Part shown: positions 50,572 to 54,753 of the stretch, piece after piece | Position numbering within the stretch: position 1 is the stretch's first letter | Layout of the letters: the number at the start of each line of letters is the position of its first letter | Source: Escherichia coli | GTDB lineage: Bacteria; Pseudomonadota; Gammaproteobacteria; Enterobacterales; Enterobacteriaceae | Direction: 5' to 3' (one strand) | Length of the DNA: 64,000 bases | Assembly: GCF_029227855.1 (NCBI RefSeq) | Contig: NZ_CP074356.1 | The notes under the pieces: generated by a model | Seen by the model: the letters and a program-made list of their open reading frames with translations, nothing else | Database searches by the model: none | What the model was told of the DNA's origin: nothing | Translations under genes and position numbers: made by a program

Positions 50572-53500
50572 ATGAGCGGAAAACCGGCAGCACGTCAGGG
50601 CGATGCCACAATGAAAGGTGGCCCGATAGTCCAGGGGTCGGCAGGCGTGAGGATTGGCGCGCCAACCGGCGTGGCCTGTTCAGTGTGCCCCGGCGGATTC
50701 ACTTCCGGTAACCCGGTGAATCCGCTGCTCGGTGCAAAAGTACAGCCCGGCGAAACCGATTTCGCGCTGCCCGGCCCGTTACCGTTCGTGCTCTCCCGCA
50801 CCTACAGCAGCTACCGGACGAAAACCCCTGCGCCCGTCGGTATCTTCGGTCCTGGCTGGAAAGCACCCTTTGATATCCGCTTACAGATACGCGATAACGA
50901 ACTGATACTCAATGATAACGGTGGCAGAAGCATTCATTTTGAGCACCTGTTTCCCGGTGAGGATGGCTTCAGCCGCAGCGAATTATTCTGGCTGGTGCGC
51001 GGCGGCGTGGCGAAACTGAATGAAAGTCACCGTCTTGCCCCACTCTGGCAGGCTCTGCCGGAAGAACTCCGCATGAGTCCGCATATTTATCTGGCGACGA
51101 ACAGTCCGCAGGGGCCGTGGTGGATACTCGGCTGGAGTGAGCGGGTACCGGGTGTGGATGAGGTGCTGCCTGCGCCATTGCCGCCGTACCGGGTGCTGAC
51201 CGGCCTGGTGGACCGCTTCGGGCGTACCCTGACCTTCCGGCGTGAGGCAGTTGGCGAATTTACCGGGGAAATCACCGGCGTGACCGATGGCGCAGGCCGT
51301 CAGTTCCGCCTGGTGCTGACCACGCAGGCGCAGCGGGCGGAAGAGGCCCAGCAGCAGGCGGTTGCAGCCGGAGCAAAACGACCAGATATCCCGGTTTCAT
51401 TGCCGGACTATACAGAATATGGCCGGGATAACGGCATCCGCCTGTCAGCGGTGTGGCTGACGCATGACCCGGAATACCCGGAGAATTTACCTGCCGCGCC
51501 ACTGGTGCGCTACGACTGGACGCCACGCGGTGAACTGGCGGCGGTGTATGACCGCAGCGGTACGCAGATGCGCCACTTTACTTACGATGATAAATACCGG
51601 GGCCGGATGGTGGCGCACCGTTACGCAGGCAGGCCGGAGATGCGTTACCGCTACGACGACATCGGGCGCGTGACGGAACAACGTAATCCGGCGGGTTTAA
51701 GCTACACCTATCAGTATGAGAAAAACCGCATCATCATCACCGACAGCCTGAACCGGTGCGAGGTGCTGCATACAGAAGGCGAAGCCGGGCTGAAACGGGT
51801 GGTGAAAAAAGAGCACGCTGACGACAGCGTCACACAGAGTCAGTTCGATTCCATTGGCCGCCTTCAGTCACAGACGGATGCGGCAGGCCGGACGACAGAA
51901 TACAGTCCGAATGTGGTGACGGGTCTCGTCACACGCATCACCACGCCGGACGGCAGGAAATCGGAATTTTACTATAACAACCAGAACCAGTTAACCTCAG
52001 CATCCGGGCCTGACGGACTGGAAATGCGCAGGAAATATGATGAGTACGGGCGTCTGACGCAGGAAACCGCTCGCAACGGCGATATCACCCGCTACAGTTA
52101 TGATAATCCGCACAGTGAATTACCCTCTGCAACTGAAGATGCGACGGGTAGCCGCAAGCAGATGACGTGGAGCCGTTACGGGCAGTTACTGACTTTCACC
52201 GACTGCTCAGGCTACCAGACCCGTTATGAATACGACCGCTTTGGTCAGATGACGGCGGTCCACCGTGAGGAAGGTGTCAGTCTTTACCGCAGCTATGACA
52301 GCCGTGGTCAGTTAATCTCGGTGAAAGATACGCAGGGCCGTGAAACGCAGTATGAGTACAACGGTGCAGGCGACCTGACCGCCATTATCACGCCAGACGA
52401 CAACAGAAGCGAGACACAGTACGATGCGTGGGGAAAGGCCGTCAGTACCACGCAGGGCGGGCTGACGCGCAGCATGGAATACGACGTTGCCGGACGTGTC
52501 ATCAGCCTGACCAACGAGAACGGCTGTCACAGCGACTTCAGTTACGATGTGCTCGACCGCCTGATACAGCAGAGCGGCTTTGACGGGCGGACGCAACGTT
52601 ACCGTTACGACCTGACCGGGAAACTCACGCAGAACGAGGATGAGGGGCTTGTCACCCTCTGGCACTACGACGAATCGGACCGTATCACACACCGCACGGT
52701 GAACGGCGAACCGGCAGAGCAGTGGCGGTATAACGCCCACGGCTGGCTGAAAGAAATCAGCCACCTGAGCGAAGGTCACCGGGTGGCGGTGCATTACGGC
52801 TATAACCGTAAGGGACGTCTCACCGGCGAGCGCCAGACGGTGCATAACCCGGAGACGGGGGAACTGCTCTGGCTGCATGAGACAAAACACGCCTACAACG
52901 AACAGGGTCTGGCAAACCGCGTCACGCCGGACTGCCTGCCTGCTGTGGAGTGGCTGACCTACGGCAGCGGTTACCTGGCGGGGATGAAGCTGGGCGACAC
53001 GCCGCTGCTGGAGTACGCGCGCGACCGCCTGCACAGAGAAACGGTGCGCAGCTTTGGCAGCATGGCAGGCAGTAATGCCGCATACGAACTGACCAGCACA
53101 TACACCCCCGCAGGCCAGTTACAGAGCCAGCACCTGAACAGCCTGGTGTATGACCGTGACTATGGGTGGAATGACAACGGCGACCTGGTGCGCATCAGCG
53201 GCCCGCGACAGACGCGGGAATACGGCTACAGCGCCACGGGCAGGCTGGCGAGTGTGCGCACCCTCGCACCGGACCTGGACATCCGCATCCCGTATGCCAC
53301 GGACCCGGCGGGCAACCGGCTGCCGGACCCGGAGCTGCACCCGGACAGTACACTCACAGTGTGGCCGGATAACCGCATCGCGGAGGATGCGCACTATGTC
53401 TACCGCCACGATGAATACGGCAGGCTGACGGAGAAGACGGACCGCATCCCGGCGGGTGTGATACGGACGGACGACGAGCGGACCCACCACTACCACTACG

Positions 53501-54174
53501 ACAGCCAGCACCGCCTGGTGTTCTACACGCGGATACAGCATGGAGAGCCACTGGTCGAGAGCCGCTACCTCTACGACCCGCTGGGACGGCGAATGGCGAA
53601 AAGGGTATGGCGGCGGGAGCGTGACCTGACGGGGTGGATGTCGCTGTCGCGTAAACCGGAGGAGACATGGTACGGGTGGGACGGCGACAGGCTGACGACG
53701 GTGCAGACTGACACCACGCGTATCCAGACGGTGTACCAGCCGGGAAGCTTCACGCCGCTCATCAGAATCGAAACAGACGTGACCGAACTGGAGAAAGCGC
53801 AGCGGCGAAGCCTGGCGGAGAAGTTACAGCAGGAAGGGAGTAAAGATGGTCACGGCGTGGTGTTCCCGCCTGAACTGGTGCGGCTGCTGGACAGGCTGGA
53901 GGGGGAAATCCGGGCAGACCGTGTGAGTGACGAAAGCCGGGCGTGGCTTGCGCAGTGCGGGCTGACGGTGGAGCGGCTGGCGGCACAGATCGAGCCAGTT
54001 TATTTGCCTGAGCGAAAAATACATCTTTATCACTGCGACCACCGGGGACTGCCGCTGGCGCTTATCAGTACTGAAGGTGCAACGGAATGGCGTGGGGAGT
54101 ATGACGAGTGGGGGAATCAGCTTAATGAGGAGAACCCGCATCATCTGTTCCAGCCATACCGCCTGCCGGGGTAG
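50572..54174 (+). CDS. rhs: Rhs-family protein core (RhsA-type N-terminus plus YD-repeat shell), ending at an in-frame amber codon
   Basis: 1200-aa [45 protein letters not shown]... with many YD repeats, ending ...[11 protein letters not shown] then TAG at 54172-54174, where Rhs proteins as recalled have PGQQYD. Confidence 0.88.
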
Positions 54175-54753
54175 CAGTACGATGATGAATCGGGGCTGTG
54201 CTATAATCGTTATCGTTACTACGAGCCGTTACAAGGGAGGTATATTACACAGGACCCGATTGGGTTAAATGGGGGGTGGAATTTATATAAATATCCGCTG
54301 AATCCAATAAATTATGCAGATCCTCTTGGCTTAGCCGTAGATATAAACCACTTCCCAGTCAACGAAGACATACGAAATTATGCAGAGAAAGTTTGGAATA
54401 ATCCTAATATCATTACAATTGGAACACATGGTGATCCTCAATCAGTATATGATGAAAATTATAATAAGATAGATGTCAAGACATTAGCTAATGAGGTTCG
54501 AAATCATCCTAAATTTAAACCTGGAATGTCAGTAAGACTGTTATCCTGTAATACAGGAAAAGGAAATAACTCTTTTGCACAGCAATTGGCAGATGAACTA
54601 GGTGTGAGAGTCTATGCTCCTGACCAATATGACTGGTACTATTCAAATGGTAAGGTAGAGCCTTGGGGAGGATTCTATGATGCAAACAATCAATTGCAAA
54701 TGGACACGAATCAGCCTGGACATGAGTTTACATTCAAGCGAAGGAAACCATAG
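54175..54753 (+). other. In-frame continuation of rhs: end of core (DPxGL motif at 54319-54333) plus ~139-aa variable C-terminal toxin domain of unknown type
   Basis: Same frame as rhs with no further stop until 54751: [53 protein letters not shown] then [16 protein letters not shown]...[10 protein letters not shown]...[10 protein letters not shown]...FKRRKP; AT-rich unlike the GC-rich core. Confidence 0.6.

Follow-up and report, generated by a model that had tools for sequence, protein, structure and literature searches.

The 64,000-nucleotide stretch of Escherichia coli DNA analyzed here (hereafter "the window") carries, on its plus strand, an rhs gene whose reading frame is interrupted by a premature amber codon. 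The 5′ part of the gene is a 1200-codon open reading frame (ORF) at positions 50572..54174, which the ORF list and its translation show to begin with an ATG at 50572 and to be closed by an in-frame TAG at 54172-54174. It encodes a PAAR-like N-terminus, then YD repeats, and reaches 24 residues into an Rhs-associated core domain. The amber triplet occupies codon 1201, where comparison with orthologs gives CAG (Gln) as the ancestral codon. Beyond it the same frame (54175..54753) runs on for 192 sense codons, from 54175 to 54750, until the native TAG at 54751-54753. The translation of this remainder, which would now go unused save for rare readthrough, includes the motifs QDPIGL and ADPLGL followed by a 139-amino-acid C-terminal domain of low G+C content (54334..54750, plus strand) that is predicted to be a cysteine protease toxin of clan CD. 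A candidate cognate immunity gene lies immediately downstream at 54810..55358 on the same strand and, judging from its translation and the annotation of its relatives, encodes a 182-amino-acid protein with Sel1/tetratricopeptide repeats (TPR).

An rhs gene interrupted by an amber codon

The original prediction for this locus held that the frame stays open for 193 codons past the amber, through DPLGL and the toxin domain. This is the case when the native stop is counted together with the 192 sense codons. From the base composition of the downstream stretch, which is A+T-rich, the chance that a frame of 192 codons would be open is approximately 6e-7, and one in 200,000 shuffled versions of the post-amber stretch stayed open. 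The remaining two frames contain 12 and 23 stops. Given this low probability and the abundance of stops in the other frames, the open frame downstream of the amber is real rather than a product of chance.

Profile matches place the gene among well-known relatives. When the protein of a sister strain, which equals the product of the window's gene with Gln in place of the amber, is compared with the NCBIfam model NF041261 (RHS_core), residues 1-1254 match with 2592.7 bits against a cut-off of 2000. The read-through protein also matches the YD repeat model TIGR01643, and its residues 1177-1254 (54100..54333, plus strand) match the Rhs-associated core domain model TIGR03696 with an E value of 2.9e-22. 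The same domain, which the amber splits, is likewise recognized by the Pfam RHS model PF03527 and by alignment to Rhs proteins of solved structure. As is typical of the family, a variable tip of low G+C content is followed by a small immunity gene, and the DPxG...DPxGL autoprotease motif is present in the Rhs-associated core domain, although it lies 3′ of the stop. The uninterrupted frame through DPxGL into the toxin is what this copy lacks, such that the gene is a member of NF041261 by descent but a disrupted one.

The toxin-immunity pair resides on an island of approximately 11 kb (window positions 45034-56100) located between yeeO and yeeN. Its left edge adjoins a tRNA-Asn gene found by ARAGORN at 45034..45109 on the plus strand, and two integrase genes of the island are annotated as frameshifted in related genomes. 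Neither in the window nor in these relatives does a vgrG or other type VI secretion system (T6SS) gene adjoin the rhs locus. The G+C content falls from approximately 0.63 in the core to approximately 0.34 in the toxin tip and the immunity gene, with the drop at about position 54300. This is the classic structure of an Rhs tip. The clade-I rhs genes of E. coli (RhsA-D type) have the same arrangement, in which a core of high G+C content leads into a variable, G+C-poor C-terminus with an immunity gene behind it, and the match to NF041261 is a further shared feature.

Origin of the premature stop

To establish the ancestral state, the rhs region was compared by megablast with 5,426 complete E. coli genomes. 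Orthologs in other strains are intact genes of 4182 nucleotides, annotated as encoding an "RHS element core protein" of 1393 amino acids, and their length is exactly that of window positions 50572-54753. In a base-by-base comparison, the window has T at position 54172 where each of five aligned orthologs from complete E. coli genomes has C. Indeed, T54172 is the sole difference across all 4182 nucleotides between the window and its three closest genomes, NRZ14408, JNEC-KY178 and isolate 362. The intact ortholog shared by these strains (WP_089570725.1; 1393 amino acids) occupies the same tRNA-Asn island locus, has the same length, and is followed by the same immunity gene. Relative to these strains, the window's toxin-immunity pair has TAG for CAG at codon 1201 of rhs and isoleucine for methionine at residue 106 of the immunity protein.

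The original prediction proposed that the ancestral codon is CAG and that one C-to-T change explains the stop, Gln being the residue of the corresponding motif in Rhs proteins. Both the proposal and the motif are borne out by the intact orthologs, and the dipeptide G-Q is found at the aligned position in four Rhs proteins of solved structure (Tse5, Pseudomonas protegens RhsA, Salmonella bongori Rhs and Tse15). The downstream frame is also conserved, with the 579 nucleotides 3′ of the amber 100% identical to intact alleles from several genomes. This absence of any decay after the stop means that the lesion is either very recent or an error. Thus, the two alternatives originally put forward, a recent inactivating mutation or a mistake in sequencing or assembly, are the same two that remain after the present analysis.

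How widespread is the TAG allele? An exact 61-mer centered on the TAG is absent from all 5,426 complete E. coli genomes, among which 218 match the 61-mer region with at least one mismatch. Similarly, a 32-mer carrying TAG has no exact match among metagenome contigs, whereas the CAG version of this 32-mer, which served as a positive control, matches 19 contigs. The exact 1200-amino-acid product was not found among approximately 15 billion proteins, and the intact 1393-amino-acid allele WP_089570725.1 is present on 154 contigs. On the sequence collections searched, the TAG lesion is private to this genome, and is either very young or artefactual.

The artefact would be a base-call or consensus error, in which case the codon in the isolate is really CAG, its Rhs toxin gene is intact, and T54172 arose during sequencing or polishing. 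The perfectly kept sequence downstream of the stop is what one would expect of an intact gene. Moreover, Rhs sequences are multi-copy, occurring at a median of six places per genome, and reads mis-mapped from a paralog can corrupt a consensus. Cross-mapping of this kind, however, imports the base of the paralog, and T at this position occurs in no E. coli genome searched. The profile of the assembly is also not that of an error-prone one, in that 12 substitutions and not a single indel separate the whole 64-kb window from JNEC-KY178. In addition, a neighboring private change, at position 55127 in the immunity gene, has been deposited as a distinct protein (WEP42311.1/WP_275877630.1).

A further argument comes from JNEC-KY178, the closest sister, which carries a comparable nonsense change of its own. 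In that genome a private CAG-to-TAG mutation, corresponding to the single-nucleotide polymorphism (SNP) at position 12906, interrupts tsuA/yeeE, and RefSeq annotates the gene with an "internal stop". The tsuA gene of the window (12753-13811) is intact, such that the two genomes present mirror images of each other with respect to tsuA and rhs. Judging from the one in tsuA, private ambers at CAG codons are a normal part of the variation within this clone. Taken together, these considerations make an error at position 54172 unlikely.

Over the last 35 kb of the window, four changes are private to it relative to the three sister genomes, at positions 39125, 48429, 54172 and 55127, and three of the four are G:C-to-A:T transitions. 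Of the two changes outside the toxin-immunity pair (39125 and 48429), one lies in an interval matching cobT of the relatives and the other in an already frameshifted pseudogene annotated as "phage integrase N-terminal domain". A Dcm deamination hotspot was considered as a source of the change at 54172 and rejected, since Dcm acts at CCWGG, a motif that the ancestral sequence GGGCAGC does not contain.

We therefore consider it probable that the stop is a recent, private nonsense mutation, in which a spontaneous C-to-T change at position 54172 converted the CAG codon for Gln-1201 to amber in a standard E. coli gene for an RHS element core protein. Two observations pull in other directions. First, the TAG allele is a singleton among the collections searched, which fits a consensus base error. 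Second, two of the four private SNPs in the last 35 kb fall within the 4.8-kb toxin-immunity pair, a clustering that hints at a non-neutral process although it is not significant (approximately p = 0.1 by a binomial estimate). Regardless, a point mutation of this sort is an event of an ordinary and already known kind, and not a novel biological feature.

Predicted truncation of the cocoon and loss of the toxin

If the amber is genuine, release factor 1 would terminate translation at codon 1201 to yield a product of 1200 amino acids in which the PAAR-like N-terminus and almost the entire series of YD repeats are retained. Missing from this product would be the final 53 core residues, which include the seal and both autoprotease aspartates, and the 139-amino-acid toxin. 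The original prediction placed the amber at the junction between the Rhs core and its toxin domain. It is true in effect that the stop separates the two, but it does not sit at the junction: codon 1201 lies within the core domain as delimited by TIGR03696 (1177-1254), 53 codons upstream of the end marked by DPLGL. Because the stop lies within this domain, truncation removes the autoprotease and sealing part in addition to the toxin.

The importance of this region is known from P. protegens RhsA, in which D1324 and D1346 perform the C-terminal self-cleavage that releases the toxin, and this conserved region closes off the cocoon at one end (PMC8765631). By analogy with these two residues, Asp-1228 (in QDPIGL, 54253-54255) and Asp-1250 (in ADPLGL, 54319-54321) are the predicted autoprotease aspartates of the window's protein, and both are encoded beyond the amber. 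The analogy is drawn from an alignment in which the C-terminal core of the window's gene matches those of the solved T6SS Rhs effectors P. protegens RhsA (PDB 7Q97), Tse5, Tse15 and Tre23, including the pattern G-Q...DPxGL...DPxG(L/W). An engineered protein, RhsA-delta-tox, which comprises residues 1-1323, offers a comparison, as it is cut at the first aspartate (PMC8765631), whereas the predicted product of the window stops 27 residues earlier. By comparison with these systems, the truncated protein would be a cocoon that is neither sealed nor loaded with toxin. Without the toxin domain in this protein, the strain would no longer deliver this Rhs toxin.

Could an active toxin nevertheless be made from the interrupted gene? 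Internal reinitiation was considered and rejected. Past the amber, no in-frame ATG, GTG or TTG occurs before position 54526, which is already beyond the predicted catalytic histidine, and an active toxin can therefore not arise by reinitiation. Full-length Rhs would then come solely from background readthrough of the stop by near-cognate tRNA-Gln, and the residue inserted would be the wild-type one. As a general figure from the literature, readthrough of this kind occurs at approximately 1e-3 or less. The base that follows the TAG is C, and a stop codon followed by C is a context reported to be inefficient for termination in bacteria (PMC5289835), though it does not amount to a dedicated signal. 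In E. coli, near-cognate tRNAs insert Gln, among other residues, at UAG (PMC4333366), and therefore the rare products of readthrough would often be exactly wild type.

These features raise the idea that the amber is functional, such that UAG is read as Gln through the leaky UAG-C context, or by a glnV-type suppressor encoded elsewhere, to give a regulated low dose of toxin. Readthrough in general is put at 1e-3 to 1e-2, and the same source describes UAG readthrough as low in wild-type E. coli (PMC10570021). No suppressor tRNA is encoded in the 64-kb window, where the tRNA genes detected by ARAGORN are three copies of tRNA-Asn. Programmed readthrough or recoding was rejected on the grounds that conservation of the stop among orthologs, the defining test for recoding, fails: all five aligned orthologs have CAG, and TAG was found in none of the 5,426 genomes and in no metagenome contig. 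We regard functional readthrough or suppression as extremely improbable.

The domain that has been cut off is itself of interest. The 139-amino-acid tip (54334-54750) has no match in Pfam, NCBIfam or PADLOC, and nine homologs were found among 5.8 billion clusters. In two motifs, IITIGTHG and VRLLSCNTG, a His-Gly pair and a Cys, respectively, each follow a hydrophobic beta-strand (E26-30 and E66-70). The Cys is invariant in 8 of 8 sequences, and the HG pair is present in all seven sequences that cover that site. His-32 (54427-54429) and Cys-72 (54547-54549) of the tip are the candidate catalytic residues, and the domain is predicted to have the caspase-like alpha/beta fold expected of clan CD members. 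From this fold and the two motifs, we predict with confidence that the tip is a clan-CD cysteine protease toxin resembling the cysteine protease domain (CPD; peptidase C80).

The resemblance is distant. Compared with the CPDs of MARTX and of TcdA/TcdB, and with the Pseudomonas aeruginosa T6SS effectors Tce1/Tce2 (PMC13323088), the tip shares 8-18% identity and matches no Pfam profile, and it is shorter than the CPDs by approximately 60-100 residues. The mode of carriage also differs, in that the predicted protease tip is borne by an Rhs cocoon, whereas the compared systems rely on Hcp or on a large exotoxin.

The immunity gene and decay of the locus

The immunity ORF, with the start chosen by RefSeq, extends from 54810 to 55358 (182 amino acids) and begins 57 nucleotides after the rhs stop. 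An alternative ATG at 54756 would give a protein of 200 amino acids. This upstream start adds a hydrophobic N-terminus of 18 residues, MRYFLFIFITIPLISGGH, that resembles a signal or membrane segment, and the RefSeq start at 54810 is preceded by GGAGG. The counterpart in related genomes, WP_001578539.1, is annotated as a "tetratricopeptide repeat protein" and contains Sel1/TPR repeats. A weak hit of the immunity protein to MerG was dismissed as noise, its score being 23.5 bits where the cut-off is 350.

According to the original prediction, an intact immunity gene has been retained at this locus. The reading frame is open, as claimed, but the gene has not been left untouched: the private G-to-A change at 55127 produces the missense substitution M106I (numbered on the 182-amino-acid model). 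The methionine form of the protein occurs on at least 1000 contigs, whereas a single contig carries the isoleucine form, deposited under the accessions given above.

Two factors might together account for an immunity gene that is still open. There would have been too little time for it to decay, and it would continue to provide protection from kin with an intact toxin. Expression of the gene might nonetheless be affected by the amber. A scan of 54100-54810 detected no promoter-like site on the plus strand, a result that is uninformative in that the total count of sites equals the expectation from shuffled sequence. With no such site before its start, the immunity gene may rely on the rhs transcript, and the approximately 580 nucleotides of untranslated RNA that the amber creates might expose it to polarity.

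Related strains reveal that this locus has been damaged in other ways as well. The toxin tip is present at 99% identity or more in 91 of the 5,426 genomes. Independently of the amber, the pig enterotoxigenic E. coli (ETEC) strains ETEC1701 and W13-16 carry an IS1 element at the equivalent of window positions 54277-54284 (positions 5141-5910 of the ETEC1701 locus, L006). This insertion site is 105 nucleotides downstream of the amber and is likewise inside the core domain. In ETEC4068-type strains (L007), a one-nucleotide indel ends the toxin at ...APDQYD*. The alleles of ETEC1701 and ETEC4068 share an in-frame deletion of 72 nucleotides near the N-terminus, and none of these damaged ETEC loci has lost the immunity gene. 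Rhs pseudogenes and relics have been catalogued across E. coli loci, and mutational loss is a described fate of these genes (Jackson et al., 2009; PMC2935791). Compared with those documented pseudogenes and relics, the window's allele has a single point nonsense mutation and no further decay, placing it at the very first step of pseudogenization.

The recurrent damage invites the hypothesis that the knock-out was selected rather than neutral, either because loss of the toxin is linked to the M106I change in the immunity protein or because, in the niche of the strain, the toxin brings a cost or no benefit. In variants of this hypothesis, a weakened immunity protein might make the toxin costly, or loss of the toxin might relax the constraint on immunity. 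Two findings are in its favor: pig ETEC lineages have independently lost the same locus to IS1 and to a frameshift while retaining the immunity gene, and private SNPs are concentrated in the toxin-immunity pair. That concentration, as noted above, falls short of significance, and the replacement of methionine by isoleucine is conservative. Furthermore, 91 genomes carry the toxin, and most of those among the entries seen are annotated as intact genes. Selection for the knock-out is therefore a doubtful proposition, slightly less credible to us than a sequencing error.

A more elaborate reading combines several of these elements. The amber would not be neutral but coupled to M106I as part of a co-evolution or collapse of toxin and immunity within one clone, and readthrough of the leaky UAG-C context by tRNA-Gln would yield a trace of exactly wild-type toxin, enough to maintain selection on the immunity gene. 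Separately, the silenced toxin would belong to a small, uncharacterized family of CPD-like (clan CD) cysteine protease toxins carried by Rhs. As a joint account this is quite improbable, and a spontaneous nonsense mutation of recent date is the explanation that we favor.

Beyond the island, a large gene for an Ig-like adhesin occupies 58000-64000 on the minus strand, and the window ends inside it. From its position in the gene order of strain K-12 we take it to be yeeJ. It is frameshifted in the annotation of NRZ14408 and intact in JNEC-KY178 and isolate 362.

For annotation, the consequence is that the locus should be labeled as an internal-stop pseudogene of rhs. Beyond this correction, and the prediction of a competitive phenotype, the amber itself carries little weight, and the unassigned toxin domain that it silences is the more interesting object. 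As an example of Rhs decay the allele is nevertheless a clean one, in which the first step is visible as one altered base and nothing else. The isolate would be expected to lack one interbacterial toxin but to remain immune to it. Viewed together, the amber, IS1 and frameshift alleles indicate that the toxin has been lost repeatedly and its immunity kept, a pattern that fits the conversion of a killer strain to one that is resistant only.

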